Shown: one piece after another, positions 10,273 to 27,856 of the stretch
Layout of the letters: each line of letters opens with the position of its first letter
How positions within the stretch are numbered: the first letter of the stretch is position 1
Source of the DNA: Candidatus Aenigmatarchaeota archaeon
Lineage (GTDB): Archaea > Aenigmatarchaeota > Aenigmatarchaeia > QMZP01 > QMZT01
Direction of reading: 5' to 3'
Length of the DNA: 64,000 bases
Assembly (NCBI GenBank): GCA_026397315.1
Contig: JAPLVC010000004.1
Coordinates: 79,666 to 143,665, forward strand
The notes under the pieces: generated by a model
Database searches by the model: none
Told to the model about the DNA's origin: nothing
What the model saw: the letters and a program-made list of their open reading frames with translations, nothing else
Position numbers and translations under genes: made by a program

Positions 10273-10599
10273 ATGACAGCAGTAGTGGCAGAACTTAGCG
10301 ATTCGAATTTCAACGATTTCGTTGCGAAGCACAAGGTCGCGCTGGTGGATTTTTACGCCGACTGGTGCGGCCCGTGCCAGGCCATGAAACCGGTCATCGA
10401 CGAGCTAGCCGGCGAGATGAAAGGCAAAGTCTCTTTTGCGAAAGCGAACATGGACAAGGCCGGCGCTACTGCGAACAAATACGGCATCATGTCCATACCC
10501 ACGCTGCTCATATTCAAAAACGGCAAGATGATGGACAGGCTCGTCGGAGCGTTCCCGAAGGACATGATAAAGCAGAGACTCGCCAAAATGGTCGAGTGA
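10273..10599 (+). CDS. trxA: Thioredoxin
   Basis: DFYADWCGPC and IMSIPTL. Confidence 0.96.
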   Translation: MTAVVAELSDSNFNDFVAKHKVALVDFYADWCGPCQAMKPVIDELAGEMKGKVSFAKANMDKAGATANKYGIMSIPTLLIFKNGKMMDRLVGAFPKDMIKQRLAKMVE

Positions 10600-10709
10600 A
10601 AGAGTGATAACCGGCGACATCAGGAAACGGATAGCAGAAAACGTTTAAACATTACGCGGGTTACGCAACTTCTGAAAGCATAAATAGTTAAATAATAATT
10701 AAATATAAC

Positions 10710-13700
10710 ATGGGTAGGGCTACTTTCAGGGGTGGGTTGATCGTTTTTTCTGCACTTTTGTTGTCTTTCTTTTTTGTGTCCGTTTTGCCTTCGCTGGCAT
10801 ATTTCGCATTTGACGTTCCGGTCGTTGATAACCGCGACTTGGGCCTTTTCGCGAAAGGCGAACCTATGGACTTCAACATCAACATGACTTTCGACTACCC
10901 GTTCCCGCCCGCGGAGAACGCAACGCAGCTAACGGCCGAGGTCTGGAGAAACGGCGAGATGCTGCAGTCGAAGACGCTCACCTTGAGCAAGTTCCTTGAG
11001 AAATATAAAATCGCCAGCAACGGCAAATACGCGTTCCGCCCCATATATTTCAACTTCTCGGTTTTCGTCGAGGCCAAGAACGTTTCCTACTCGCCGACGA
11101 CGTTCACATACGGCGTGCGCCAGTCGAGGAGAACGCCCTACGAGAACGAGGATGACAAGAAATGGAAGGTTTCCGGCAGGATTGTGCAGGGCACACAATA
11201 TGGTTTCGACATATACAACAACTATTGTTCCGGCCCGTGGGATTTCAACGAACAAGCTTGGCCCGTATCACGCGGATATATGTGCTACAGGCAGGCGGGC
11301 GACGAGGAGTGCAGGAAAGGTGGCGTGTCGGCCATAGAGTGTAAGGCCACTTACGGCAGCACCGGCACCGCCCCCTGCGCCTTATGTTGCAGCCCCAGAT
11401 GTCAACTGTCCAACACCGATTGTGTGTGCATGAAATCCGGCTTAAACGAAGATTGTGATACGGAGAATATGCCATGCACCAAGTTCCAACAAAATCCGCA
11501 GCAACATTGGGTCACGGTACAAAGCACATGCTGCGTGGAGCAGGAAATTTTAGGTTACACATGTTCCGCGTCAATCAACGGAATTTGTTTAAAGAACAAT
11601 GAAGCGGGAAGTCACGAAGAAACTATTGAAATATCGAGGGGCACTTGGGACGAGGTTTCCGGCGAGACTTCATGGACAGCGCCGGTGCAAAAAGGAGCTG
11701 TCCTTTATTTCGAAGTCGGTGACAGCAGGAACGTGCCCAACGACCCAATCGCGTCGCCGGCAGTGCCTAACATGAAATGGTCTTCCGCGCATTCGTGGAA
11801 ATTCGAGACCTATGTGATACCCACGCAAAGCGTGAACGGCAAGGTGCTCAGGGTTTACCCGGACGACGGCATGAGATATTTCTTTTACAAGCTTGATGCA
11901 AACAACAACTGGGTGCCTGCAAGCACTCAGAACTGGTCCTGCGTTACGGGCCAGTTCGACAATACCGTCCTTGCGGACGGCAAGACTCCTACAAAAATAA
12001 ACGGCTGCCCGATTTCTCTTTATATGAATAAAAATTCGTGGTATAAGCTCGAGTTCTATCTTTACAACGACCCATGGGGCAGGAGCGAAGGCGGCGGAGA
12101 AAGCAGCGACAGCGAAAACCCGCTAGGCCTGAGAATCGAGGACTACCAGACCAAGTCAGCGTCCCTGCTTGACATCCTCGGGACCGGGAGCATCATGAGC
12201 AGCGAGCCGCCGGGAGACGACGGCGCGGTCATAGGCGGCTCCGCGACAGTATTTGCGAACGAGGGCCTCAAAGAAATAAGGGACTTCAAGATGTTCGCCA
12301 CCACGCACTCGGTCGACAGCTGCTCCAGCGGCGTCGACTGCTCGATGAGGGCAGCCTGCGGCAACTCTGATTACAACGGGGTGAAGACGAACAAGTATGG
12401 TTGGATACTCAACCACGCCATTTACCCGTTCGAGTGGAGCGACGTGGGCGGCGTTTCGACGACGAAAGCCGGCTACATAACCAGCACCGGCAAGAACGGC
12501 GGGGAAAAAATGGCCATCGACGCGCCGAGCATAACACCCGTGAACGGATACGGGAGATACAAATACACCAACATGTGGTTTGACGACAACACGAGGCATT
12601 ACATCGGTGGCATTTACAAATGCGCGAAGGAATGGCCTTCATGGGCGGCTGACTGTCCGGAAGAGAATAACAGATACAGCTACGCGAGAGGCTCTGACCA
12701 GATAAAATGCTGCTACGTCAGTTCGACCGTCACTGGCACCGACCAGAAAGTGACCATCGAATATGACACTAGATACCAATACATTATAAACTTCCTTCCC
12801 GGCGCGGGCGACAAGCTCTGCGTCGCTTCGGAATACAACGCAGGCAGCGGGGCTGCCATGCAGACGGTCTATCAGTCCAATTACACGAACGCGCTGTGCG
12901 ACACGAAGACGGGAAGCCGCTGCTGCTACTGCAGGCCCGGATGGGGCTGCAAGATGGACTGCTCCAACGAACTTAACATGACGGCTTCCAGCAAGTTCGC
13001 GCTACCGTTCCCGGCAATAGGACCTTTCTGGGAGATTAAGAACGCGCGCATAAGATTCGAAGCTACAGAGCCGCCGGTCGTCATCAACCTTACGTCGGAA
13101 GGCAACGCCCAGGACGGGTGGGACATAAAGGCGAATCTCGGCGACAGGGCGACGCTGATGCTGGACAAGAACTATACCATACCTCTCAACCTTTACAATG
13201 ATTTCGGCCTCAAGGCGCCTGATGAAATGCTGACTGGCGCGAGGGATACACTGAGGCTTTCGCTCAACACTTCCACGACGCTCAGCGGATTTTACATACC
13301 ATTCTGCAGGATGGAAAACGGCAACACCAGAATATCCTGCGACTACACGTTCCACACGGTAGACTGCACTAAGGAAGGCGTCAGGAGCAGCTATTACGAT
13401 GAAGAAACGTATCCCGCTACCAAGGGCAAGGGCGCGTGCAAAGCGGGCGTCAGGACATGCGTCAAGTTAGGCGAGAACAACCTTAGGTGGGTCTACGACA
13501 CCACGAACGACATGCCCGTCTACCCTGCGCCGGAAACGTGCAACGGCAAGGACGACGACTGCAACGGGCTGGTCGACGATGTGAAGACTTTCGACATGAT
13601 AATAAATGAAATAATAAGCGCTGGCGGCAAGAAAAACCCATACCAGGTCACGAAGTGCGCCTGTTTCATGGGAGCTGCGTCGTCTGACGAACGTTGCAAC

Positions 13701-16700
13701 AACATAGACGACGACTGCAACGGCGTCGTGGACGACAGCTCTGTTACAATGTGGTCTAACACCTGCGACAGCGCCGTCAAGCAATGTGTGAAAGAAGGCA
13801 GCCCGTACGAGTGGTGCAAGAGCCTTTACAACTCAACGCAATGCTCGCTTACACAAACGCAGATAACAGTGACGGGCAACGTTACTGTGAACACGTGCAC
13901 GGAAAAGATGCGCGCCTGCATGGACAACGCTCACGTTCTGCCGTCCGGTACACAGGTCAAATTCACATACGAAGAATGCAAACAGTTCTACAACAACTAT
14001 TCCTGTTTCTTTAATGAGAAGAAAATCGTCGCGCTGGGCGACACGTGCAGGTGCACGCTTTCTAATCCGCAGCCTGAAACGTGCAACGGCGTTGACGACG
14101 ATTGTAACAACATAATAGACGACGTGGAAAACGCCACAACATGTGGCTGCGCTTTCCTTATGAACACGTCACTTGTCGCTAACCTGAAGGCATCCGGCGA
14201 CGTTTCCTGCGACGGCATAGATTCCGACTGCAACGGCGCGATAGACGACGGGGCGAAAAATTGCGCGTGCACAGGGAGACCGGCGATAGACGTGGTTGAA
14301 ATAAAAGGCAAGGTCAAGGAGATGTGCGACGGCATAGACAACGACTGCAACGGCCTCACCGACGAGGCGTTCCCGCAGGTGGGCAAGCCGTGCGGCTACG
14401 GCCTGTGCTCGGGCGGCATATACGTCTGCGGAGTGCACGGCGACAAGGCCGTGTGCAACACCACTGTCAATCCGGACGAGACTTTCAACGGCAAGGCCAT
14501 AAAGCTCAACTACGCCGAGACGTGCGATCTCAGGGATAACGACTGCGACTATTCGATTGACGAGGACTGCTCCTGCACGCCGGAAAGCGCTGTCAAGCTG
14601 TGCGGCTACCAGAGCGGCATTTACTACAAAGATAAAACGCAGCTCACGCAGACGTGCAATCAGGCCATGACCGAGCTGAAGAAGCTCATCACGTGGGCCG
14701 AAGCGCCTGAGAACGTGAAATACAGGCGCATGCTCACGGTCAGGAACAACGAAAACGTGGCGCTGGAAAACTACCCGATAAACTTCAGCCTGAACACTTT
14801 CATGTTGAACCAGACCAAGAAGATGCGTCCGGACGGCGGCGACCTGAGAATATTGCCAGCCGACGGAGAGAAAAATCTCGACTGGAACAACTCCAATCCA
14901 TTCGTCAGGGCGCAGACGACCATATGGTTCAAGGCTAGCCTCCCGGCAAACCAGGAGAAGAAATTCTACGTTTATTACGGCAATCCCACAGCGACGTACA
15001 AACCGGTCACGCTTAGCGAAGTCACGGGACTCACTTACGGCATAGGAGTCTTCCTTTTATGCCATTTCGAAGGCACGACCGCTTGCGAGGGAAACATGGT
15101 GCCCAGATATGACAACGGCGTGACATTCCAGAGCGCACAGAGGGAGCTTCTGGGCGAAGTGGTCGATACGCAGGGAGCCTTCATAAACGGCTTCGACAAG
15201 CTCACTTACCCGACTTCCGAGAACTTCAACAAGAACCGCGGCACGGTAATGATGTGGTTCTATCCTGAAGACGTGACGGAAGATCATTACCTGTTCTATT
15301 CTACCGACCTTTCGGGCAATCCGCAGTTCGGCCTGCATTTCAACGAGAACGGCACGTTCTTCGAGGCGTACGACAAGCTCGGCAACGCCCGCAGGATAAA
15401 CGGCGGAATAGTCAATATCGGCTGGCATCACATAGCCGTCACATGGGACAACCTCAAGGGCACGAAAATATACATGGACGGAGCCCTGAGAAACAGCACA
15501 TCCGCTTCATGGGAAGCGAATGACATAGGCGTTGATGTGTACGTCGGCGGCGACGGGACGTCAAAGACGGCTTATTCGCTAATCGACGAGCTGGCGGTCT
15601 ACTCGCAGGAGCTCGACCAGGCATCCATACGCGAGAAGATGCGCTATTACAAGCCTTATGTGACGATGGGTCCTGAGGAGACTCTGAACGAAACCGTGGC
15701 TACGACCGAAACTGATGTGTATGAAAAATGCACGGTAATGCTGCAGAACATAAGCGCGGACGAGGCGAAGAAGGCGACGATACTCAGCCTCTGCGATACT
15801 GTAAGGATATGCAGCAAGACCGACTTCCCGATAAATTCCATAAGCGAATGCACGTTCGGCGTGCAGACGTGCGCTAGCGGTCAATGGGCCGCATGCACGG
15901 CAGTCCAGCCGAAGACCGAAGTGTGCAACCTTAAAGACGACGACTGCAACGGGCTGATAGACGATGTCGCGGTGCCGGAAACATGTGCATGCTCAAACGG
16001 CGGCGAGCCCGGCATCGAGTTGTGCAACGGCATTGACGACGACTGCAACGGCAAGATAGACGATGTGAGAGGCATGGACACGGCGTTCTCGACGCACTGC
16101 GGATGCTACGACCAGATCGTCAACATCACGCAGAAGAACTCGGAGAAAGAAACGCTGTGCAATGCCATAGACGACAACTGCGACGGCACTATAGACGAGG
16201 GCATAGAGAAGTGCGCGTGCGCGGGAACGTCTTTCAATTCAGCTCTCAACTCAGTGGGGCCCGCTGTCGGAGAAGAGAAGTGCGACGACGTGGACAACGA
16301 TTGCAACATGGTAATAGACGACCCGTGGATACAGGGCGGAACCTCGGCGACAAAGTTCGATTACCTTGGAGCGCCGTGCAGCCCGCTCAGCAGCAGGTGC
16401 GTGGGCGGCGTATTCGTATGCTCCAAGACTGCGACGGACATGGTGTGCAGCACGTCCTCCGGCGACGGCATAAAAGGCCAGGACCTGAGGACGAACGAGA
16501 CGTGCAACCTACTCGACGACGACTGTAACGGCAAGATTGACGACATATGGGGCGACATCTCGGGCAAGTTCTGCAGATGCTACAATGGCGTGCCGAGAGC
16601 GAACGAGACGTGCAACGGCATAGACGACGATTGTAACGGCCTGATAGACGACGGCCTCGGCAATTGCGGATGCGCATTTGACATCGAAGACAACGTCAAC

Positions 16701-18080
16701 AACATCAATCAGCTTTCCATCCTGATAAGCGCCAAGAAAGCGGGCGGCGAGACGTGCAACAACATAGACGACGACTGCAACGGAGCGGTGGACGACGGGC
16801 TCGGGAGCGAATGTTTCTGCTCGGGCGGCTTTGCAGGCAACGCGGCGACAAAGCCCGAATTCTGCAATGGTTTCGACGACGATTGCAACGGCGTCATTGA
16901 CGACGTAACTTATCCTGAAACATGCGCCTGCTACAACGGAACCGTCAAAGCAGGCAAGCAGGCGGAAATATGCGACGGCATCGATAACGATTGTAACGGG
17001 CTCGTCGACGAGGACTGGCCCATGCTCGGCAGCATGTGCGGCGTCGGCGCCTGCTCGAACGGCGTTTACGAATGCCTGCCAAGCGGAACCGGAACCGCAT
17101 GCTCGACCATGGAAGGCGGCTCGGATGACAAATCGAAAGACGAGGAATGCGGCAATAATATTGACGATAACTGCAACGCGGTCACGGACGAGAACTGCAT
17201 CTGCGACGTGGCCGGCGAGACCAGGAAGTGCAGCTCCAACGTGGGCGAATGCAGGGAAGGCGTACAGACGTGCAGCGCTGACAAGGAATGGAGCGGTTGC
17301 ATAGGCGGCGTGCTGCCTGCGATTGAAACGTGCAACGGCAAGGACGACGACTGCAGCGGAGCGATAGACGATTTATCGGGCGGCAAATGCGGCTGCTACG
17401 GAGGGGCGTCGCCCAAGACTGAGTCGTGCAACGGCATCGATGACGACTGTAACGGGGCGATAGACGATGTAAGCGGCAAGAGCTCAGTCGAAGCGACGCA
17501 GTGCGGCTGCTACGACAACGCTTACGCGAAGGGCGCTAAACCGGAGGCGTGCAACAGGATTGACGACGACTGCGACGAGATCATAGACAATGTTAAGGAC
17601 GGCACTTCAGTCGAATCCGCGAGATGCGCCTGCTACAACAACGGTTATGCAGGCGTTGAAAGCTGCAACGGCATAGACGACGACTGCGACGAGGCGACGG
17701 ATGAGGACTGGCCGAACGTTGGTCAGGACTGCGGCCAGGGCATATGCACTTCGACTTTCGTATGCTCGCCCGACGGCAAGACGCTTTCATGCAATGGCGC
17801 AATGCCACAGACGGAAGTATGCGACGGCAAGGACAACAACTGCAACGGGCTGGTCGATGAAGGATGCTTCGGCTCAGAGGTCGGCAGTTGCGAGAACATG
17901 GTGCAGGACAGCAACGAGGAAGGGATTGACTGCGGCGGCGTATGCCCGGTGGCATGCTCGGCCCAGCAGATCATAAATCCCGCATCCGGCTCGTGGATGA
18001 TAGTCTTCGCCGCGCTTGTGGTAGTCATAGTCGCGGTAGGCATAGTCCTGGTGTTCATGAAACCGGGAGCGTCGGTTTAA
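10710..18080 (+). CDS. Giant (2456 aa) membrane-anchored Cys-rich surface protein with about 21 ExCNGxDDDCNG (MopE-like) repeats, a DUF2341-like domain and a LamG-like domain
   Basis: N-terminal signal/TM; repeats counted by eye; YRRMLTV...DGGDLRI...IWFKASLPAN...YVYYGNP; WHHIAVTWD...IYMDG...IDELAVY; C-terminal EGIDCGGVC plus TM. Confidence 0.85.
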   Translation: MGRATFRGGLIVFSALLLSFFFVSVLPSLAYFAFDVPVVDNRDLGLFAKGEPMDFNINMTFDYPFPPAENATQLTAEVWRNGEMLQSKTLTLSKFLEKYKIASNGKYAFRPIYFNFSVFVEAKNVSYSPTTFTYGVRQSRRTPYENEDDKKWKVSGRIVQGTQYGFDIYNNYCSGPWDFNEQAWPVSRGYMCYRQAGDEECRKGGVSAIECKATYGSTGTAPCALCCSPRCQLSNTDCVCMKSGLNEDCDTENMPCTKFQQNPQQHWVTVQSTCCVEQEILGYTCSASINGICLKNNEAGSHEETIEISRGTWDEVSGETSWTAPVQKGAVLYFEVGDSRNVPNDPIASPAVPNMKWSSAHSWKFETYVIPTQSVNGKVLRVYPDDGMRYFFYKLDANNNWVPASTQNWSCVTGQFDNTVLADGKTPTKINGCPISLYMNKNSWYKLEFYLYNDPWGRSEGGGESSDSENPLGLRIEDYQTKSASLLDILGTGSIMSSEPPGDDGAVIGGSATVFANEGLKEIRDFKMFATTHSVDSCSSGVDCSMRAACGNSDYNGVKTNKYGWILNHAIYPFEWSDVGGVSTTKAGYITSTGKNGGEKMAIDAPSITPVNGYGRYKYTNMWFDDNTRHYIGGIYKCAKEWPSWAADCPEENNRYSYARGSDQIKCCYVSSTVTGTDQKVTIEYDTRYQYIINFLPGAGDKLCVASEYNAGSGAAMQTVYQSNYTNALCDTKTGSRCCYCRPGWGCKMDCSNELNMTASSKFALPFPAIGPFWEIKNARIRFEATEPPVVINLTSEGNAQDGWDIKANLGDRATLMLDKNYTIPLNLYNDFGLKAPDEMLTGARDTLRLSLNTSTTLSGFYIPFCRMENGNTRISCDYTFHTVDCTKEGVRSSYYDEETYPATKGKGACKAGVRTCVKLGENNLRWVYDTTNDMPVYPAPETCNGKDDDCNGLVDDVKTFDMIINEIISAGGKKNPYQVTKCACFMGAASSDERCNNIDDDCNGVVDDSSVTMWSNTCDSAVKQCVKEGSPYEWCKSLYNSTQCSLTQTQITVTGNVTVNTCTEKMRACMDNAHVLPSGTQVKFTYEECKQFYNNYSCFFNEKKIVALGDTCRCTLSNPQPETCNGVDDDCNNIIDDVENATTCGCAFLMNTSLVANLKASGDVSCDGIDSDCNGAIDDGAKNCACTGRPAIDVVEIKGKVKEMCDGIDNDCNGLTDEAFPQVGKPCGYGLCSGGIYVCGVHGDKAVCNTTVNPDETFNGKAIKLNYAETCDLRDNDCDYSIDEDCSCTPESAVKLCGYQSGIYYKDKTQLTQTCNQAMTELKKLITWAEAPENVKYRRMLTVRNNENVALENYPINFSLNTFMLNQTKKMRPDGGDLRILPADGEKNLDWNNSNPFVRAQTTIWFKASLPANQEKKFYVYYGNPTATYKPVTLSEVTGLTYGIGVFLLCHFEGTTACEGNMVPRYDNGVTFQSAQRELLGEVVDTQGAFINGFDKLTYPTSENFNKNRGTVMMWFYPEDVTEDHYLFYSTDLSGNPQFGLHFNENGTFFEAYDKLGNARRINGGIVNIGWHHIAVTWDNLKGTKIYMDGALRNSTSASWEANDIGVDVYVGGDGTSKTAYSLIDELAVYSQELDQASIREKMRYYKPYVTMGPEETLNETVATTETDVYEKCTVMLQNISADEAKKATILSLCDTVRICSKTDFPINSISECTFGVQTCASGQWAACTAVQPKTEVCNLKDDDCNGLIDDVAVPETCACSNGGEPGIELCNGIDDDCNGKIDDVRGMDTAFSTHCGCYDQIVNITQKNSEKETLCNAIDDNCDGTIDEGIEKCACAGTSFNSALNSVGPAVGEEKCDDVDNDCNMVIDDPWIQGGTSATKFDYLGAPCSPLSSRCVGGVFVCSKTATDMVCSTSSGDGIKGQDLRTNETCNLLDDDCNGKIDDIWGDISGKFCRCYNGVPRANETCNGIDDDCNGLIDDGLGNCGCAFDIEDNVNNINQLSILISAKKAGGETCNNIDDDCNGAVDDGLGSECFCSGGFAGNAATKPEFCNGFDDDCNGVIDDVTYPETCACYNGTVKAGKQAEICDGIDNDCNGLVDEDWPMLGSMCGVGACSNGVYECLPSGTGTACSTMEGGSDDKSKDEECGNNIDDNCNAVTDENCICDVAGETRKCSSNVGECREGVQTCSADKEWSGCIGGVLPAIETCNGKDDDCSGAIDDLSGGKCGCYGGASPKTESCNGIDDDCNGAIDDVSGKSSVEATQCGCYDNAYAKGAKPEACNRIDDDCDEIIDNVKDGTSVESARCACYNNGYAGVESCNGIDDDCDEATDEDWPNVGQDCGQGICTSTFVCSPDGKTLSCNGAMPQTEVCDGKDNNCNGLVDEGCFGSEVGSCENMVQDSNEEGIDCGGVCPVACSAQQIINPASGSWMIVFAALVVVIVAVGIVLVFMKPGASV

Positions 18081-18123
18081 TCGGAATTCAATACGGCAAC
18101 GAGAACAGAATGGGTGTGTTGGA

Positions 18124-18540
18124 ATGAAGGGTATCTCACCTTTGGTAGCCACTATAATGCTGATAGCCTTCGCTCTTGCGGTTTCCGGCATGCTTTTCTC
18201 GTGGGTTTACCAGTTCACCTATGCACAGAGAGAGGAATTGCAGTTATGCTCCTCGGCACAGATATCCCTGAACAATGCATACTACAACCCGCAGACGGGC
18301 AACATCAACATGGTCGTTTATAATACAGGCGGCGTGCCGCTGACAGGCTTTGCCGTGCTCATATCGACTGACAAGAGTGCTGAAACGTCGAAAGACTTCG
18401 CGACAAAGGAAGTCGCAGTGAACGACATAGGCCTTTTCCCGGTGAAATACAGCGAAGGCGTCCGCTCGATAGTCGTGCAGTCCACGCAGTGCAGGAACGC
18501 GCAGGACATGATAAGCATCTATGACGTAGAGGGATTGTGA
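18124..18540 (+). CDS. Archaeal type IV pilin-like protein
   Basis: Class III signal peptide MKG|ISPLVATIMLIAFALAV. Confidence 0.88.
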   Translation: MKGISPLVATIMLIAFALAVSGMLFSWVYQFTYAQREELQLCSSAQISLNNAYYNPQTGNINMVVYNTGGVPLTGFAVLISTDKSAETSKDFATKEVAVNDIGLFPVKYSEGVRSIVVQSTQCRNAQDMISIYDVEGL

Positions 18541-18606
18541 CTGTAAATCAATAGACTGCAATATATTATACTAAATAAAAAAATATAATATTGGAGAGTG
18601 AGGGCA

Positions 18607-19821
18607 ATGGATAAAGATAAAAACAGGGCAATGGCAGCGGTTTTTCTCGTTTTCATATCATGCGTTTTAATCACCATAAGCTTTTCATCGATCACCCAGG
18701 TATCGGCCGCGGTAAATATTGAAAAAACATGGGACTGCTCCAGCGGCTTCTCATGTGGAAGCAATACAATGGGCCTGTGCACGTCTACACTAAAGCCGTA
18801 TCTTTCCATGTTCAACAACCAGTATTCTTTCAGCCTTGCTGTCGAGAAGCCCGGCGCCTATACATGCACTGTAAAAGTGACTGCGAACCACTTCGACTTC
18901 CCAGATGGCAAGACGGACGAGCCGAACGAGGTGACGGACGTCTCGCTTAACGGCATCACGATAGGCTCGACCGTGGACAGCTGGTGCCAGCCGGGCAGCG
19001 TGCCATGCGTCAACCCGGATGTGTGCACGACTTGCCTGTCATACGGATGCACGCAAAAATACAATGGCGACTGCCCTGACGGTTGCAGATGCCCGTGCAA
19101 GACGCCGTCCGAATCCGGCAATAGCATGAATGCCCTGCAAAGCAGCAGCGGCTCCTTCGGCGGCTCCATATGTTTCAATATAAAGAATCTCAACGCTCTG
19201 ATAAATTCGGCGCACAGGGATGGCGAGGGAGCTGTTATAGCGTTCAGCAGCCCGAACAACAGGCAATATTTCGCCATAATACACGGTATTGGCGGGAGCA
19301 TACTTTTCCACAGGTTCGGATTCTGCTTTGCATGCTCATGCACGAACTGGTGCGGCGTAGGCGGCGCTGGAACAATTACCGCCAGGGAAGGAGTCACGTA
19401 TAAAATACAGAAGACAGGTCCGTACACACTGGCTTTTTCCGACGGCACAACAACCCTAACATATAATGCAGCCAATGACAATGACAACGGAGCGACCATA
19501 CAACAAAAGTTCCGGAACGGCATAGAGTTATCGCAGTATTGCGTTGGTTCGGGATGCGCGTGGAATGGCCATCCTTTCTTCCCTTTCGTGGACGGCAATG
19601 CGGCAATTGAAATAGTCGATTGCAGCATCGGTGTAATATGCGACAATGACGGCACATGCGATGTCGGCGAGAATCCCGTCAACTGCCCGAATGATTGCGG
19701 CGGAAACGACGGAGAATGCAAAAACATGGATGAAAGATGCAGCATATCGGCCGGCGATTGCTGCACCGGCTTAATCTGTATAAAGGTGGGGCCGGTCAAT
19801 CGCTGCGTGCCGGCAGATTAA
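18607..19821 (+). CDS. Secreted Cys-rich protein, paralogue A (conserved N-module, variable middle, C-terminal knottin-like motif)
   Basis: Signal peptide; N-module shared with 23369..24571; CDNDGTCDVGENPVNCPNDC; C-x6-C-x6-CC-x4-C-x8-C end; no TM anchor. Confidence 0.8.
   Translation: MDKDKNRAMAAVFLVFISCVLITISFSSITQVSAAVNIEKTWDCSSGFSCGSNTMGLCTSTLKPYLSMFNNQYSFSLAVEKPGAYTCTVKVTANHFDFPDGKTDEPNEVTDVSLNGITIGSTVDSWCQPGSVPCVNPDVCTTCLSYGCTQKYNGDCPDGCRCPCKTPSESGNSMNALQSSSGSFGGSICFNIKNLNALINSAHRDGEGAVIAFSSPNNRQYFAIIHGIGGSILFHRFGFCFACSCTNWCGVGGAGTITAREGVTYKIQKTGPYTLAFSDGTTTLTYNAANDNDNGATIQQKFRNGIELSQYCVGSGCAWNGHPFFPFVDGNAAIEIVDCSIGVICDNDGTCDVGENPVNCPNDCGGNDGECKNMDERCSISAGDCCTGLICIKVGPVNRCVPAD
18927..18988 (+). 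repeat. 62-nt direct repeat, copy 1
   Basis: Matches 23713-23774 with one mismatch. Confidence 0.95.
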
Positions 19822-19958
19822 GGATAGTGCGGCGACGGCCCCTGCGACACGGACGAAACCAGATTTAACTGCCAGTCAGACTGCGGGCAGGAACCGGCGT
19901 GACATCATTATAATTGAAATGCGTGTGAGCGCGTGATATTGATCGGAGGTGTTGGTTG

Positions 19959-22900
19959 ATGAACAAGAAAATGGTGGCTGTTTTCAGCGTGTTTTTGTTA
20001 GCGGGGGTTTTGGCGTTTTTTGTAACGAGCGTTAATTCGGAGGTATGCGAGGTATGCTCGGACGTGGAAAATACGTTCACCCTCGACGAGGTTGCGCTCG
20101 GCGCCACCAATACCATAACCCTGAAGGGCTACGAGAGCCACGGGCTCAAGTCGCTTTCAATAAGCTGCGAGCTCATTTGCGGCAGGCTGGGCGACTACTG
20201 CTGTTTCGACGTCTCCAAGAACAAGTGGAAATGCGCTTATGATTACCTCTATTGCAACCAGCCCAACGAGAACGGCAAATGTGTCGAGGACAAGATTCCG
20301 CCGTCCGTGGGCATAGTCGGTGTCCCATCGAGCGCAGTTTCGCCTCCGGGCGGCTCGTGCAGCGTTTATTCAGCAAGCGACGTGATTGCAAAGGTCGCTT
20401 GCACGGACGCTGAAACAGGCTGCGACAATTCGAACCTCCTGCTCGAGATAGATGAAGTCAAAAAAGCCTCGTGCCCGCAAAACGAGAACAGTTATTTTTC
20501 CGTATCAACGAGCGGCTACCTTGCCAACAGGCCGTATTACATCTGCGCCGCAGCGAAGGATCTTGCCGGAAACATAAACTACACCAAGACCCCAGTCCAG
20601 TTCTGCACCAGCACCGGCGAACCCATAAGGCCGTGGCTTTATGCTGAATCAGTAGGCGGCTCGATAATCAATCTCGTCTGGAGCCAGGCGGGCCTCAACT
20701 CGCCGAACTTCGACAGGTATGAACTGTATTATGAAAAGAACCCGCAGAAAGATAATTTCGACGTGAGCCCGCTTAACCTGAAAGCGACTATAAGGGAAGA
20801 AAAACTCGATAATTTTTACCAGGTGACCGGTCTCGAGAAAAACACCAAATACTGTTTCAGGGTCGTGGTCTTCGACAAGACCTCACCAAAAGCCCGCAAC
20901 ACCACATCTGACAGCCTTTGCCTGACGACCGTGGAATGCAACCCCGGCGAAAAGACGCAGTGCTTCACCAGGGACTGGACGACTTATTACGGCGACGAGG
21001 TCTACCTGCCATCAGGCAGTCCCTGCATTGCAGGCGAGGCCACGTGCGACGGCGGCTACTGGAGCGCCTGCATGAACCAGGTCGGACCGTTCGAAGAAAA
21101 GTGCAATAACATCGACGACGACTGTGACGGCATGACTGACATGGAGATTGATTATGTGGAATGGGGTTATGATTACGTGCCGCTGAAAAAACTATGCATA
21201 GGATTAGGCGAATGCGGCTACGGCTATGTGGAATGCCTGAACGGCCAGTGGCAGGGCGATGCCAAATGCAGCAGCTACTCGCTGGCTAAAACGGAGACAT
21301 GCAACGGCCTTGACGACGACTGTGACGGCGTTGTTGATGACGTGGGCGGCGGCAATTCCATCATTTCGACCCGCTGCGGCTGCTACAACATAAACAACGA
21401 CCCCACCGTGATGCCCAGCTCAGAAGTCTGCAACGGCATCGATGACGATTGTGACGGGACGATAGACAATGTCTTTGTCGGTTATTCCGCAACATCTTCC
21501 AGGTGCGCCTGCTACAACGGAGCAAAAACGCCAGGCCAGCAGCAGGAAACGTGCAATGAAATCGACGACGACTGTAACGGCGTCGTGGACGACGGCATGA
21601 CTGGCAGCGAGGGATGGCTTGTGAAGCTCGGCAGTGGATGGCCTGACTGGTCTGAATACTGCGGCACAGGGACGCCTTGCGACGGCGGCCACTGGGAATG
21701 CAACGCCGGCGGAACGGGCGTAGTGTGCTCCACCATAGGCGGCGGAGAGAATAAGGCAACGAACGAGACGTGCAACGGCATAGACGACGACTGCGACGGC
21801 AGCGTGGACGAGGGATGTGCCTGCTCGCCTCCCGGAAACTGGAGCACATGCGGCATCGACAAGGGAGAGTGCGCCCTTGGCCAGCGGCAATGCAGCAGCG
21901 AAGGCGTATGGGGCACGTGCATAGGGGACAAGAAACCAAAGACGGAAATATGCAACGGCAAGGATGACAACTGTAACGGCGTGACCGACGATGTTTATGG
22001 CGGCAATTCAGTAAATTCGACTCAATGCCGCTGCTACAACGGAGGGACGCCTTCTCAGGAATCCTGCAACGGCATAGACGACGACTGCGACGGCATCGTG
22101 GATGATGTAGTAACTGGCGGAAAGACAATCGCCGTGAATCGCTGCGGCTGCTACTTCAACGGCAGTTCTACGAGAGTCCTTCCAGGGCAAAATAAAGAAA
22201 TATGCGACGACGTGGACAACGACTGCAACGGCGTCGTGGACGACCCGTGGAGCGGGAACCTCGGCAAAGACTGCGGCTACGGCGCTTGTGCGGGCGGCAA
22301 AATCGTCTGCAAGACGACCGGTAATGACACTGTTTGTTCGACCAACAGTCCTTACGGCATAGGCAATTCCACTGATAAAAGGAGCGTGGAGACATGCAAC
22401 AGTCTCGACGACGACTGTGACGGCGTTGTTGATGACGTGGGCGGGAAACAGTCAGCCGCCGAAGCCCAGTGCGGCTGCTACGGCGGAGCGGCCAAAAAAG
22501 ACGAGTTCTGCAACAAGATAGACGACGACTGCGACGGAGGGATTGACGAAAACCTGCTGTGCGCATGCTTCGCCGGCCAGAAAAAGGCCTGCGGCTCGGC
22601 CATAGGAGAATGCGAACTGGGCGAGGCCGAATGCAGCGGCGGCGTATGGGGCACGTGCACGGGCGGCAAAAAGCCTGCGAAAGAAACGTGCAACATGAAA
22701 GACGACGACTGCGACGGCATTATAGACAATGTTAACAGCGGATATTCAGTCGAAGAGACTCAGTGCGGCTGCTACAACGGACGGAAACCAGCGGTTGAGA
22801 AGTGCGACGGCATAGACAACGACTGCAACGTCAAGACAGACGACAACATCGACTGTAGCTGTGATGAGGGCGACGAGATGCAATGCGGCTCGAACGTCGG

Positions 22901-23372
22901 CGAGTGCACGCCCGGCCTTAAGAAATGCATAAACGGCAGATGGGGCGAATGCAGCGGAGGCGTGCTGCCCAAGAAGGAAGCGTGCAACGGCATCGACGAC
23001 GACTGCAACGGCGTCATAGACGACGTGAACGGCGGCAACTCGGTCGGCTCTTCAAAATGCGCATGTTATAACAAGTTCTCCGTGCCAAACACGCAGGAAG
23101 AAGTGGCCAACGGCATAGACGACGACTGTGATGGAGCGATAGACGAGGGATATTCAAATGAACCCAGCCACTGCCAGAACGGCTTCAAGGACGGGGATGA
23201 GCAAGGCGTCGACTGCGGCGGCTCGTGCAGGAAGATGTGCGCCCAGCCGATTCCCATGAATACTTGGATACTCATATTCGCCGTCATTGCGGGCGTGATA
23301 GCGGTCTTCGGTATATTCATAAGTTCTTTCTGGAAGAAAGAGACGAAGTCGCTGTTCGAAAGAGTTAAATGA
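19959..23372 (+). CDS. Membrane-anchored Cys-rich surface protein with an FN3-like domain and about 14 MopE-like repeats
   Basis: Signal peptide; INLVWSQ...YQVTGLEKNTKYCFRV; repeats; QGVDCGGSC plus C-terminal TM. Confidence 0.85.
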   Translation: MNKKMVAVFSVFLLAGVLAFFVTSVNSEVCEVCSDVENTFTLDEVALGATNTITLKGYESHGLKSLSISCELICGRLGDYCCFDVSKNKWKCAYDYLYCNQPNENGKCVEDKIPPSVGIVGVPSSAVSPPGGSCSVYSASDVIAKVACTDAETGCDNSNLLLEIDEVKKASCPQNENSYFSVSTSGYLANRPYYICAAAKDLAGNINYTKTPVQFCTSTGEPIRPWLYAESVGGSIINLVWSQAGLNSPNFDRYELYYEKNPQKDNFDVSPLNLKATIREEKLDNFYQVTGLEKNTKYCFRVVVFDKTSPKARNTTSDSLCLTTVECNPGEKTQCFTRDWTTYYGDEVYLPSGSPCIAGEATCDGGYWSACMNQVGPFEEKCNNIDDDCDGMTDMEIDYVEWGYDYVPLKKLCIGLGECGYGYVECLNGQWQGDAKCSSYSLAKTETCNGLDDDCDGVVDDVGGGNSIISTRCGCYNINNDPTVMPSSEVCNGIDDDCDGTIDNVFVGYSATSSRCACYNGAKTPGQQQETCNEIDDDCNGVVDDGMTGSEGWLVKLGSGWPDWSEYCGTGTPCDGGHWECNAGGTGVVCSTIGGGENKATNETCNGIDDDCDGSVDEGCACSPPGNWSTCGIDKGECALGQRQCSSEGVWGTCIGDKKPKTEICNGKDDNCNGVTDDVYGGNSVNSTQCRCYNGGTPSQESCNGIDDDCDGIVDDVVTGGKTIAVNRCGCYFNGSSTRVLPGQNKEICDDVDNDCNGVVDDPWSGNLGKDCGYGACAGGKIVCKTTGNDTVCSTNSPYGIGNSTDKRSVETCNSLDDDCDGVVDDVGGKQSAAEAQCGCYGGAAKKDEFCNKIDDDCDGGIDENLLCACFAGQKKACGSAIGECELGEAECSGGVWGTCTGGKKPAKETCNMKDDDCDGIIDNVNSGYSVEETQCGCYNGRKPAVEKCDGIDNDCNVKTDDNIDCSCDEGDEMQCGSNVGECTPGLKKCINGRWGECSGGVLPKKEACNGIDDDCNGVIDDVNGGNSVGSSKCACYNKFSVPNTQEEVANGIDDDCDGAIDEGYSNEPSHCQNGFKDGDEQGVDCGGSCRKMCAQPIPMNTWILIFAVIAGVIAVFGIFISSFWKKETKSLFERVK

Positions 23373-24571
23373 TCGCACAGGCGCGCGAGGGTTTGAAAAG
23401 CATGAAAAGGGATAGAGTCTTAGCTTGGTCTTTCATTTTAATCACAGCTGCGGCTGCAGCTTTGCTCACAACCGCTTTAATGCCCGCGAATTCCAGGGCA
23501 AGCGCAACGACGACCATAGACAAGACCTTCACATGTTCTGACGGCTTCACTTCAGGCTGTTTCAAGACAGGATGCATGGCCGAGAGACAGCTCAAGATGA
23601 GCAATAACCAATACACTCTTGCTTTCACCGCGCCGAAGGCTGGTGATTACATGTGCACGATAACAGCGGTGACCAATCACTTTGATTTCCCTGAAGGGGG
23701 GTCTGAGACCAGCGAGGTGACGGACGTCTCGCTTAACGGCATCAAGATAGGCTCGACCGTGGACAGCTGGTGCCCGCCTGGCGGGACTACCAATCCTCCG
23801 ATGCCCAAATGCGACCTGAATATCGAATGCTGTGGTCCAAGGGCATCGACACTCGATTGTAACAGATATCCTGAGAGCAGTGTGAGCTGCACGGAGCCGA
23901 AGCTCCTTTGCGACGATGACCCGATGAGCTTAGCCGCTATTACTAGCAGCGGCAAGGAAATAACCATGAGCCTCGAGAACTGCAAGCCCGGTGCCGTGGC
24001 TTTCGTAAGGCAAGGCAATTTCAAACCCCGCTGCCAGAACTGGCAGTTCACCACGGGCAGTGGCATCCGCTGCCCGGTAAGCGATTCCATAACCGGCGGC
24101 AAGCTGATAGCGACTTATGACTGCAGCAAAACGCGCAATTACAACATCAATCTGGATTTCCTTGTAGTCGGTAAAAGTTATACCTTGGGTGTTTGGGCTC
24201 CGTTCACGGCAACTGGCTGGAGCAGCATCAACGTCTGCGCGACAGGCATTTCTCCTTATTATTCTGAAACAAAGACCGACACGGGCGACGGCATATGCAT
24301 GGGCGTCACGCCGCCAGTTAACTGCGGCAACGGGGTGATAGACGCAGGCGAGGAGTGCGACGGCAGCAACCTTAACGGCAAAACGTGCGCCAGCTTCGGA
24401 TATGATGCAGGCACGCTCGCCTGCAGTAGCAGTTGCAAGTTTGACAAATCAGACTGCCTCGAATGCAAGCGTCAAGACGAAATATGCAGCATAGGGGAAC
24501 ACGACTGCTGCCCTGGTCTTGTGTGCACAAAATCAGGCTCACGTAATTATTGCATGGCTGAAGTCGAATGA
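23369..24571 (+). CDS. Secreted Cys-rich protein, paralogue B
   Basis: Signal peptide; same N-module as A; CGNGVIDAGEECDGSNLNGKTCASFGY repeat; C-terminal knottin-like motif; ATGA overlap with the upstream gene. Confidence 0.8.
   Translation: MIAQAREGLKSMKRDRVLAWSFILITAAAAALLTTALMPANSRASATTTIDKTFTCSDGFTSGCFKTGCMAERQLKMSNNQYTLAFTAPKAGDYMCTITAVTNHFDFPEGGSETSEVTDVSLNGIKIGSTVDSWCPPGGTTNPPMPKCDLNIECCGPRASTLDCNRYPESSVSCTEPKLLCDDDPMSLAAITSSGKEITMSLENCKPGAVAFVRQGNFKPRCQNWQFTTGSGIRCPVSDSITGGKLIATYDCSKTRNYNINLDFLVVGKSYTLGVWAPFTATGWSSINVCATGISPYYSETKTDTGDGICMGVTPPVNCGNGVIDAGEECDGSNLNGKTCASFGYDAGTLACSSSCKFDKSDCLECKRQDEICSIGEHDCCPGLVCTKSGSRNYCMAEVE
23713..23774 (+). repeat. 62-nt direct repeat, copy 2
   Basis: Matches 18927-18988 with one mismatch. 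Confidence 0.95.
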
Positions 24572-25216: not shown

Positions 25217-26869
25217 ATGAAGAGAAAAGCCGGGAAAACCGTGACGCAGAAAAATAAAACAGAATCGCTAGCGAACGCCTCCAGCGGTTACGCAGGCGAG
25301 CTTCCACACAAAACGTCGTCAATATGCCCGGATTGCCTTAAAATTCTGCCGGCTCTCGTTTTCGAGGAGGGCGGCAAGGTCTGGATAGAGAAGACGTGTC
25401 CGAAGCACGGCAAGTTCCGCGAGATATACTGGAGCTCCGCCGAGATGTACAGGAAATCGAGGAAGTTCGCTTACGACGGGCATTCCATGGAAAACCCTAA
25501 CGTAACCAAGGAAAACCCGACCTGCCCCAAAGACTGCGGCATCTGCTCGCTCCACAAGTCGCAGACGGCGCTGGCGAATCTCGTTGTCACGAACCGCTGC
25601 GATCTCAATTGCTGGTACTGTTTCTTCTTCGCGCAGAAGGCCGGCTATGTCTATGAGCCTTCCTTAGATGACCTGAGAAAGGCCGTGAAGCTCATGACCC
25701 GGCAGAAACCCGTTCCAGGCAACGCGGTGCAGCTTACCGGAGGCAATCCCGAGCTCAGGGAGGACATACTGGACATAATAAAGATGATAAGAGACGAGGG
25801 AGTGGATCACATCCAGCTCAACATGAACGGCACGCACAAGTTCTGGAACGACCCGGAATGGACCATGAAAGTCAGGGAAGCGGGCGTGAATACAGTTTAC
25901 CTGTCGTTCGACGGCGTCACGCCCAAGAGCAACCCGAAGAACCATTACGAAATCCCGAACATGCTTCAGAACTCGAGGAAAGCCGGCATGGGCATAATAC
26001 TCGTTCCCACCATAATCAAGTCCGTCAACGACAACGAAGTCGGCGACATACTGCGCTTCGGCTTCAGGAACATGGACGTCGTGCGCGGAGTCAATTACCA
26101 GCCAGTTTCGCTGGTCGGCCGCATGCCCCGCAAGGAGCGCGATAAGTTCAGGGTAACCATTCCAGACGTCATACAAAGGATGGAAGAGCAGACGGATGGC
26201 CAGATAGTCAAGGAGGACTTCTACCCGGTCCCGACCGTGAAGGCGATAACAGATTTCGTCGAGGCGCTTACTAAAAAGCCGCAATACTCGCTTTCGACCC
26301 ACTTCGCCTGCGGCATGGCCACATACGTGTTCGAGAACGAAGGCAGAATGCTGCCCATCACACGATTCGTCGACGTCGAAGGATTACTGGAATACATCGA
26401 GGAGCAGGCCGGCGAACTGAACAAGGGACGGAGCAGATACATAATCGGCACCAAGATGCTGTTCAAGATGAATTCGTTCATCGACGGCAAACGCGCGCCG
26501 AAAGGCTTCTCGCTCGGCAACATGTTATACAACGCGCTGATGAAGCACGACTACCGTGCGCTTGGAGCGTTCCACCACAAATCGCTTTTCATCGGCATGA
26601 TGCACTTCATGGATTTGATGAACTACGACATAGAAAGGGTAAAGAGATGTTGTATTCATTATTTGACACCCGAAGCGGTGATACCTTTCTGTGCGTTTAA
26701 TGTTATACCGGAGATGTACAGAGACAAAGTTCAGAATAAATATGCTATTTCTTTTAAAGAATGGGAAAAAATGACAGGCAAAACTCTTAAAAATGATTTA
26801 TACAAAAGAGATATTGAAAAAATTAAAAATACGGACTTGTACAGGAAAACCTACGAAGGCTTCTTGTAA
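25217..26869 (+). CDS. tes: Radical SAM tetraether lipid synthase (Tes/GDGT-MAS, MJ0619-like)
   Basis: N-terminal CPDC...CPKHG, CPKDCGICSLH, VTNRCDLNCWYCF, QPVSLVGR, HFACG, C-terminal RCCIHY...IPFCAFN. Confidence 0.85.
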   Translation: MKRKAGKTVTQKNKTESLANASSGYAGELPHKTSSICPDCLKILPALVFEEGGKVWIEKTCPKHGKFREIYWSSAEMYRKSRKFAYDGHSMENPNVTKENPTCPKDCGICSLHKSQTALANLVVTNRCDLNCWYCFFFAQKAGYVYEPSLDDLRKAVKLMTRQKPVPGNAVQLTGGNPELREDILDIIKMIRDEGVDHIQLNMNGTHKFWNDPEWTMKVREAGVNTVYLSFDGVTPKSNPKNHYEIPNMLQNSRKAGMGIILVPTIIKSVNDNEVGDILRFGFRNMDVVRGVNYQPVSLVGRMPRKERDKFRVTIPDVIQRMEEQTDGQIVKEDFYPVPTVKAITDFVEALTKKPQYSLSTHFACGMATYVFENEGRMLPITRFVDVEGLLEYIEEQAGELNKGRSRYIIGTKMLFKMNSFIDGKRAPKGFSLGNMLYNALMKHDYRALGAFHHKSLFIGMMHFMDLMNYDIERVKRCCIHYLTPEAVIPFCAFNVIPEMYRDKVQNKYAISFKEWEKMTGKTLKNDLYKRDIEKIKNTDLYRKTYEGFL

Positions 26870-27753
26870 GAATTTAGAATTTCTTCTAATTTTTCTGATC
26901 TCTTGGGATGTTTGAAACCGACAAGTCTTTGAAATTTTTCTATTTCATCTCTTCCTGTAATATTTATGTAATACATATCATTCTTATTTTTTATGACAGA
27001 GTTTCTTATTTCTAACTCTTTGAGAATCTCTGAAATACCTTCTGCCATTTTTCTGCTGGACGTGGCATAGTTTACAATTCTGAGGCCTTGTCTTTTAGTG
27101 TAAGCAACAGAACCATCTCCATCGAAACAACCACGCAAAAAGCATTTCTTGATTTCTATTGACGATTTTTTTATTTTTTCAGGCACTTTCACTATATCAA
27201 ATTTTTTACCCTTTGGAATTCCTAATTCATGAAAAATAGTTGATATGGTTTTGTTTTTTACATAAACCTGCATTTCATTTTTTTGATATATGTAAAAATT
27301 CTTATGGTTAAAAATTTTCTCTATGTTTTCCATGAAAATTGATCTTAGATGTTTTTGATTGTTTACAAATTCTACCCAAGCCAAGTTTTTGTCTATATGA
27401 CCATCTGTTATTATCAATCCCATTAAATATGCCAGGTTCCCATCGATAGCAATGGGCAAACTTCTTTTAACAGGCAAACTTCCCTGCGCCGAGCCTATTC
27501 TAATGACTTTTACTTCTATCAATCGCGTGTCCATTTTAACACTCTCGTTTATTTTCAAAAGTGTTTTTACAGGTATCAAAAACTTACCGTTAAACCACCT
27601 GCTTACTGTGAATTGCCCTACTCCCAGATAACCAGCGAGCTTGTATTGGCTGCCAAAACTTACCAGTGCTTTGTTGAAAAACTCTTTTCTGAAGTTTTCT
27701 TCAAGCTCGACAGAAAGTTCGCTAATTTCATATAAATTTAAGCAGTTTTCCAT
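26851..27753 (-). mobile_element. Free-standing LAGLIDADG (intein DOD-type) homing endonuclease gene with an N-terminal HTH
   Basis: LAYLMGLIITDGHI and FLRGCFDGDGSV motifs, HTH YKLAGYLGVGQFTVSRW, markedly AT-rich, TTTATAT about 25 nt upstream of ATG 27753, no intein splicing motifs. Confidence 0.9.
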
Positions 27754-27796
27754 GATATTATATGCACTTTTAGGACATATAAACAATTTTCAACAT

Positions 27797-27856
27797 GACA
27801 TAGAAAGCATCAAGAAAAGCGAAGTCTACAAAAAGACTTACGAAGGGTTCGTTTGA
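27797..27856 (+). pseudogene. Stranded duplicate of the last 20 codons of tes
   Basis: DIESIKKSEVYKKTYEGFV* versus the tes end DIEKIKNTDLYRKTYEGFL* (26810-26869). Confidence 0.9.

Follow-up and report, generated by a model that had tools for sequence, protein, structure and literature searches.

In donor-strand complementation, as described for chaperone-usher pili, archaeal threads (PMC9715654), and archaeal cannulae (PMC12518558), an incomplete beta-sandwich is filled by the N-terminal end of another secreted polypeptide, and assembly takes place outside the cell, on a cell-surface structure. A similar arrangement is proposed here for a locus in a 64,000-nucleotide stretch of DNA (the window; contig JAPLVC010000004.1, positions 79,666 to 143,665) from a Candidatus Aenigmatarchaeota archaeon, in which a single jelly-roll domain is very probably divided between genes. 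Its N-terminal part (the N-module) stands at the front of two secreted proteins, heads A and B, and its C-terminal part (the C-half) opens a membrane-anchored stalk protein encoded between them. Donor-strand systems donate a single strand and form head-to-tail polymers, whereas the stalk here would contribute ~50 residues, amounting to three to four strands and a third of the domain, and the proposed head-stalk pair would be a heterotypic, terminal 1:1 complex in contrast to the polymerising donor-strand subunits. Each donor-strand subunit is both donor and acceptor; here, the heads lack the C-half, the stalk lacks the N-module, and only stalk-head fusions carry both. Also unlike donor-strand systems, the fission origin is visible from contiguous relatives, and no chaperone or usher was seen.

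Nearest in function is the cohesin-dockerin pair of the cellulosome scaffoldin, in that a constant small module would fix varied secreted enzymes or binders to an anchored stalk; heads in relatives include a PL11 lyase-like domain and lectin-like folds. However, each of cohesin and dockerin is a whole domain that folds independently, whereas the partners here are fragments of one fold. Neither cohesin nor dockerin has a sequence or fold relation to these halves, and there is one docking site per stalk here. In fold, the contiguous domain is like the jelly-rolls of the carbohydrate-binding module (CBM) families CBM6, CBM35, and CBM36, from which it differs in its eight conserved Cys and in the lack of Pfam and NCBIfam matches on A and B. 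To our knowledge, encoding by two genes is not known for these families. Lectin-like extracellular proteins of DPANN archaea have been proposed from structure prediction only (bioRxiv 10.1101/2023.10.27.564410). No description of the present system was found in the literature on Cys-rich surface proteins of DPANN archaea and on gene fission with strand complementation, in a search that did not cover all journals.

The genes and domain parts in question are located as follows.

18607..19821, plus strand: head A, 404 amino acids, secreted, no membrane anchor; signal peptide, N-module, Cys-rich linker, predicted lectin-like beta-sandwich, and C-terminal cysteine-knot-like module.
18712..18996, plus strand: N-module of A, the N-terminal part (about two thirds) of the split jelly-roll, with 5 Cys; matches positions 2–100 of the hidden Markov model of the contiguous domain (E 5e-17).
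19959..23372 (start 19956/19959), plus strand: stalk, 1138 amino acids, between A and B.
20034..20183, plus strand: C-half, the last third or so of the split jelly-roll (~50 residues), directly after the stalk signal peptide.
23369..24571, plus strand: head B, a secreted paralogue of A, with its N-module at 23510–23782, a distinct Cys-rich head, and a C-terminal knot-like motif common to A.

A preliminary description of the window, made from its open reading frames (ORFs), had called A and B secreted, anchorless paralogues that share an N-module, and this was confirmed. The two proteins matched each other by BLASTP with an E value of 6e-32, the strong part being residues ~39–133 of A and 48–138 of B, and each contained one hydrophobic segment, at the N-terminus, and none at the C-terminus. 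The ORF of A spans 18598–19821, and the ATG at 18607 agrees with a 404-amino-acid database protein; B starts either at 23369, overlapping the stop codon of the stalk, or at a second Met at 23402, as in the database gene call (389 amino acids). The statement that A and B diverge into unrelated Cys-rich regions holds for the heads, which differ, but not for the C-terminal end beyond the N-module, where a cysteine-knot-like motif is common to both. The anchored stalk was found to open, right after its signal peptide, with the stretch that had been singled out as the missing half of the domain.

The stalk consists of a signal peptide, the C-half, a small Cys-rich region, an fn3-like domain, 14 Cys/Asp-rich PF11617 repeats, and a C-terminal membrane anchor at residues 1097–1128. 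The match to PF11617, the MopE-type Cys/Asp-rich repeat, scored 162 bits over 14 stretches against a cut-off of 27. In the alignment of C-halves, three Cys (Cys-x-x-Cys and a final Cys) were invariant and a Ser-His was conserved. No Pfam or NCBIfam family was found on A, B, or the first 340 residues of the stalk at E ≤ 0.1. In the genome to which the window belongs (~1.05 Mb, 91% complete), the C-half is present in a single copy (one match in a profile search, E 1.3e-24) and the N-module in two. According to NCBI records, the closest homologues come from Aenigmatarchaeota archaea, a DPANN lineage.

To relate the two parts, profiles were searched in both directions. The N-module profile (alignment A2), scored against 1.84 billion representative proteins, matched 58 clusters, and three kinds of N-module relatives were distinguished: those in which the N-module is contiguous with a C-half, those with the N-module alone, and those in which a long stalk and an N-module protein are joined in a single reading frame. 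A C-half profile built from seven stalk N-termini only showed that in ten proteins, all of other metagenomes, the N-module is followed at once by a C-half; one of the ten, the sole named record, is annotated as a Pacearchaeota archaeon. The same profile gave no C-half in A or B even at E ≤ 10. Relatives with both halves in one piece, whose lack the preliminary description had named among the contrary outcomes, therefore exist. In the reverse test, a 141-position profile built from the ten contiguous domains only was compared with 610 six-frame ORFs of the window, and it matched three of them: B at positions 3–90, A at positions 2–100, and the stalk at positions 92–139, with E values of 2e-20, 5e-17, and 3e-10, respectively. 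No other ORF of the window was matched significantly (next best E = 1.1). The sandwich of A and B is limited to profile positions 2–100 of 141, an acceptor-type feature, and the remaining strands are present in the complete relatives. The tiling of the contiguous-domain profile by the three ORFs supports the earlier suggestion that the N-module and the start of the stalk are halves of one domain, and we consider it highly likely that they are pieces of one domain divided between genes.

In several of the contiguous relatives, a signal peptide and the whole jelly-roll are followed by Cys-rich repeats, among which the Asp-rich motif of the stalk occurs, and by a C-terminal membrane segment. Since they share the plan of the stalk, the stalk can be regarded as an ordinary member of this class minus the first two thirds of its tip domain. 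In an unrooted maximum-likelihood tree of N-modules, the contiguous forms all lay on one side and the split forms all on the other side of a branch with a support of 97/90; this separation by a single branch fits one fission event. A frame that lies between two assembly gaps at locus L027 (G300:C1 147580–151650) encodes a B-like head with its own hydrophobic segment and a second signal-like segment, and continues with an N-module, ~410 residues including a PKD-like domain, and a C-half. The G300 protein spans assembly gaps, and its trustworthy portion is the 950-residue piece between the gaps (N-module, ~410 residues, and C-half). The L027 frame may be an intermediate with a variable part inserted inside the jelly-roll.

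The fold of the contiguous domain was predicted with AlphaFold2 (AF2) for residues 44–186 of protein P0042 (143 residues; 55-row alignment A5). The model was a single all-beta domain with a predicted local distance difference test score (pLDDT) of 93.4 and a predicted template modelling score of 0.87, whose last long strands (residues 98–139) belong to the C-half. It aligned with CBM36, CBM35, CBM6, and the carbohydrate-binding domain of BcsB with Z scores of 10.2–10.9, root-mean-square deviations (rmsd) of 2.8–3.9, and 105–120 aligned residues spanning 4–139. Among these, CBM36 (7ay3) gave a Z score of 10.8 and an rmsd of 2.8 over 110 residues (model residues 5–139), and CBM35 (2w46) and CBM6 (8j3x) each gave a Z score of 10.2. 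Foldseek matched the model to CBM36 with an E value of 3e-5. The model also aligned with TNF-like jelly-rolls at Z scores of 10–11. Z scores of ~8–11 are common for sandwiches, so that "CBM6/35/36-like" is a fold assignment and not a family assignment. The earlier guess of a CBM-like jelly-roll was thus borne out by the predicted fold but not at the level of family, where Pfam and NCBIfam gave no match.

The distribution of Cys residues was then compared between the two parts. Conserved Cys number five in the N-module, three in the C-half, and usually eight in the contiguous domain; if all of the 5 + 3 Cys are oxidised, one disulfide or more has to join the two halves. The mature heads have an odd total of Cys in 26 of 31 cases, including nine of the ten from complete loci (totals range from 12 to 63), and contiguous whole proteins have an even total in six of seven. 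The rows in these counts are mutually related, and no probability is attached to them.

A complex of the N-module of A (alignment A7) with the C-half of the stalk (alignment A6) was predicted together with three controls with unrelated partners. The score of the pair was 0.49, and that of the best of the three controls was 0.00. The mark for this score was passed by 58 of 80 solved complexes and by 2 of 110 mismatched pairs, and passing scores of 0.60 or under were obtained for only seven of the 80 solved complexes but for both passing mismatches. At least 76% of the contacts agreed between the complex runs, and the pLDDT of the partner was at least 62. Both chains were modelled better together (pLDDT 55–68) than with unrelated partners (33–37); the values for the N-module were 55–63 with the C-half and 34–37 with unrelated partners. 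The complex that the preliminary description had anticipated was therefore predicted, with weak support (0.49 versus 0.00); the prediction is consistent with docking, short of proof.

We propose the following explanation. In small uncultured DPANN-type archaea, the CBM-like jelly-roll would ordinarily form the N-terminal tip of anchored Cys-rich surface proteins. In this Aenigmatarchaeota lineage, gene fission would have divided it, so that the N-module (~95 residues) would now head a set of secreted, anchorless proteins with differing heads, and the C-half (~50 residues) would have remained at the N-terminus of the stalk. A secreted head would be held at the cell surface by restoring the jelly-roll together with the C-half of the stalk, that is, by multi-strand complementation, and the rebuilt jelly-roll would probably be fixed by at least one disulfide between the halves. 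A single stalk type could thereby show alternative adhesin or enzyme heads. We regard this explanation as a whole, comprising fission, docking by domain rebuilding, and head display, as reasonably likely, and the reassembly of the halves in the proposed manner seems fairly probable. The analysis shows that both pieces are homologous to one domain, that contiguous forms with a predicted jelly-roll fold exist, and that gene neighbourhood, fusions, and copy counts link heads and stalk; from these comparisons we infer physical assembly, the disulfide lock, and the interchangeability of heads, with A and B competing for one stalk.

The occurrence of the two parts was surveyed in 371 genomes of the phylum. 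The N-module was found in 12 genomes and the C-half in eight, and the C-half without an N-module was found only as one weak match in a 44-residue frame. Wherever a C-half was found, N-modules were at least as numerous as C-halves, with ratios of 2:1 in the genome of the window and 6:2, 4:1, 3:1, 2:1, 3:2, and 1:1 elsewhere. The order of genes for a giant surface protein, a pilin-like protein, a head, the stalk, and zero to three further heads is kept in three other assemblies; downstream of the stalk, these have three heads, two heads, and one degraded head, and the number of heads per locus ranges from one to four. The head of B is kept in one genome of another family that belongs to the same taxonomic order. 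The gene order is probably also kept in another genus of the family, in which a head gene appears to run across a contig break into the gene just 5′ of the stalk. Fusions of the two proposed partners were found in three protein clusters and in two genomes of the same genus: a single frame there encodes the stalk with its anchor, then a short basic loop and a second hydrophobic segment, and finally the N-module with a head, which in the three clusters is B-like. In such fused proteins, the second hydrophobic segment would be cleaved as a signal peptide, or else the stalk would loop back. In the closest relative (L005 11073–11360), head B is cut to 95 amino acids, consisting of the signal peptide and the first residues of the N-module, to which a short Cys-rich end is joined. 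Turnover of heads, by gain and by loss, is rapid.

Further features within and behind the head genes are as follows.

19138..19629, plus strand: head domain of A, a predicted concanavalin-A-like/LamG/galectin-like beta-sandwich (AF2 and structure alignment).
18927..18988, plus strand: junction block of 62 nucleotides, 61 of which are identical to 23713–23774 in B, at the border of the constant module and the variable head.
19822..19923, plus strand: remnant of a further Cys module, in frame behind the two stop codons of A (TAA, one codon, TAG); present as an intact C-terminal extension in the L004 orthologue.

The head of A was modelled over residues 144–307, with block pLDDT values mostly of 63–92 and one block at 50. 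The best fold match by VIA-align had a Z score of 8.4, an rmsd of 3.1, and 127 aligned residues, a Z score of ~8 being common with this tool, and the 50 matches listed were mostly LG, galectin, and related lectin-like sandwiches. These predictions suggest that the head of A is a candidate binding head. For the head of B, no family was recognised in Pfam or NCBIfam, and the ESM Atlas gave no usable match by features and TM ≤ 0.34 by structure. A was shortened recently; the in-frame Cys module past its stop codons is intact in the L004 orthologue.

Behind the N-module, the relatives carry FG-GAP repeats (propeller), a PL11 rhamnogalacturonan-lyase-like domain (L032 3510–5432 in G335, of another genus; E 7.6e-28), a calcineurin-like phosphoesterase (in the fused head P0030), or two Pretoxin-HINT/Hint domains. 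The last, which are self-cleaving modules, were found in tandem in the A orthologue of L003 (10001–11908; P0007), where they replace the knot-like module and have nothing behind them. With such varied modules on the same N-module, the N-module behaves like a constant adaptor, and the enzymatic cargo may act on host envelopes. The junction block codes for the last two strands of the N-module, and the remaining module is far less alike between A and B. In the A orthologues of other genomes, the block is only 73–82% identical, and paralogues within L003, and likewise within L004, share genome-specific versions of it. This within-genome identity points to homogenisation, through either gene conversion or recombination, where the constant module meets the variable head; by itself, the block is no evidence for docking. 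We put forward only tentatively the extended idea that, in a family of Aenigmatarchaeota, the split jelly-roll is a general disulfide-locked docking device for any secreted protein that starts with the N-module, be it a lectin, propeller, polysaccharide lyase, or phosphoesterase, with heads swapped by recombination at the junction block.

The proposed reassembly has to be weighed against fission whose pieces no longer meet. In that case, the N-module would be completed in cis by the Cys-rich linker or would form a smaller sandwich, the C-half would be a relic cap held by its three Cys and the adjoining Cys-rich knot, and the neighbourhood of the genes would reflect history only. Several results weigh against reassembly. 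The complex prediction is weak support, and assembly is deduced rather than observed. A retains profile positions 91–100, including a Cys-x-x-Cys, after the N-module, which means that the cut is not clean. The stalk has Cys totals of 97, 98, 97, and 98 in four orthologues, without a consistent unpaired Cys; the even totals trace to one extra Cys, a single substitution at residue ~354, and the Cys parity of the stalk was dropped as a test for a free Cys owing to this inconsistency. In five genomes, N-modules were found and no C-half was detected; these assemblies are 83–93% complete and in 30–140 contigs, and because they are fragmented, the lack of a stalk is not established for them. The fused proteins place the N-module next to the membrane and the C-half ~1000 residues off, at the far end, so that a plain geometry with the head on the distal tip is not certain. 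Co-variation of the variable positions of the N-module block with the stalk C-half was not evident, and L005 has the C-half of the window with a different block. When the whole of A was modelled with AF2, confidence was low for both the N-module and the Cys-rich linker. The N-module there had pLDDT values of 27–54 from a shallow alignment, and because this alignment had only 11 rows, the model is no clean control.

On the other side, folding of the N-module as a complete domain by itself, which the preliminary description had named as a contrary outcome, was not seen either in the model of the whole of A (pLDDT 27–54) or with unrelated partners (34–37). Both pieces retain all invariant residues of the whole domain and an odd number of Cys each, and within the N-terminus of the stalk, conservation is highest in the C-half. 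Replacement strands were not detected in A or B with the C-half profile at E ≤ 10, the anchorless heads would drift off and have no other evident means of retention, and the independent in-frame fusions of stalk and head argue for a joint function. Taking both sides together, we consider it unlikely that the pieces no longer meet.

The variability of the heads also recalls polymorphic toxins, which are alike in their constant module, sharp nucleotide-conserved junction, variable C-terminal cassettes, and tandem copies, and with which one orthologue shares Pretoxin-HINT. Under a corresponding logic of polymorphic secreted effectors, the N-module would mainly be an export or targeting module, the junction block would be a handle for swapping C-terminal cassettes, and contact with the stalk would be secondary. 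This is in line with the constant N-terminus combined with at least three unrelated head types and enzyme modules, with the 61/62-nucleotide block lying exactly at the junction, with the Pretoxin-HINT/Hint domains that end the A orthologue of L003, and with the varying number of heads per locus (1 to 4) and the 95-residue remnant in L005. Unlike in polymorphic toxins, however, no immunity-like small genes were seen behind the heads and no toxin domain was identified in the window and the related loci, and each copy is equipped with a signal peptide and a start of its own; what follows the heads is either another head gene or, on the other strand, a MarR-like regulator. In addition, the N-module is homologous to part of a structural jelly-roll and not to a known trafficking domain, and the C-half of the stalk would be left unexplained. 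An effector logic in which stalk contact is secondary is quite improbable as the main explanation, and it is compatible with docking by domain rebuilding, not opposed to it.

Although stalk and head are in one frame in some relatives, an assembly or annotation artefact, in which a single gene is broken or frameshifted, was rejected as extremely improbable, because four independent assemblies, whose stalks are 55–92% identical, show the same split and an intact signal peptide on either piece, and because the head-then-stalk order, with ~270 head residues separating the halves, is unlike that of a simply broken contiguous gene.

On the plus strand, seven genes lie in the region 10273–24571, including those for thioredoxin, the giant protein, the pilin-like protein, A, the stalk, and B. 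The genes upstream of A are as follows.

10273..10599, plus strand: thioredoxin gene, directly 5′ of the cluster, without a signal peptide; also present in L003 and L004.
10710..18080, plus strand: giant surface protein, 2456 amino acids, anchored, with PF11617 repeats (194 bits), LamG_3, and DUF2341; first large gene of the conserved cluster.
18124..18540, plus strand: pilin-like protein, 138 amino acids, with an archaeal type IV pilin-like N-terminus (class III signal-peptide-like).

The pilin-like protein matched NCBIfam UpsA (8.8e-8, below the cut-off) and TIGR02537 (4.4e-4); it is highly conserved and is encoded directly 5′ of head A at every related locus. The thioredoxin gene precedes the genes for extremely Cys-rich surface proteins, and a tie to the oxidation state of these proteins is speculative. 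Head B is followed by a MarR-like regulator gene on the minus strand. Farther downstream, a LAGLIDADG gene (26851–27786, minus strand) overlaps the 3′ end of a radical-SAM gene (25217–26869), and a short ORF (27641–27856) duplicates the last residues of the radical-SAM gene; this region (26635–27856) looks like a homing element that arrived with a duplicate of the gene end.

Little is known of how DPANN archaea attach to their hosts and act on them, and the locus suggests a concrete, testable mechanism in which the set of heads varies from genome to genome. It also provides a clear natural case of one small beta-sandwich encoded by two genes, useful for the study of domain fission because contiguous, fused, and permuted relatives can still be compared with it. 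Should the disulfide lock prove true, the two halves could serve as a two-part protein-coupling tool, that is, a natural protein-ligation pair. If the split jelly-roll is indeed a general docking device, it would represent a new principle of archaeal surface display and a likely determinant of host recognition in DPANN symbionts.

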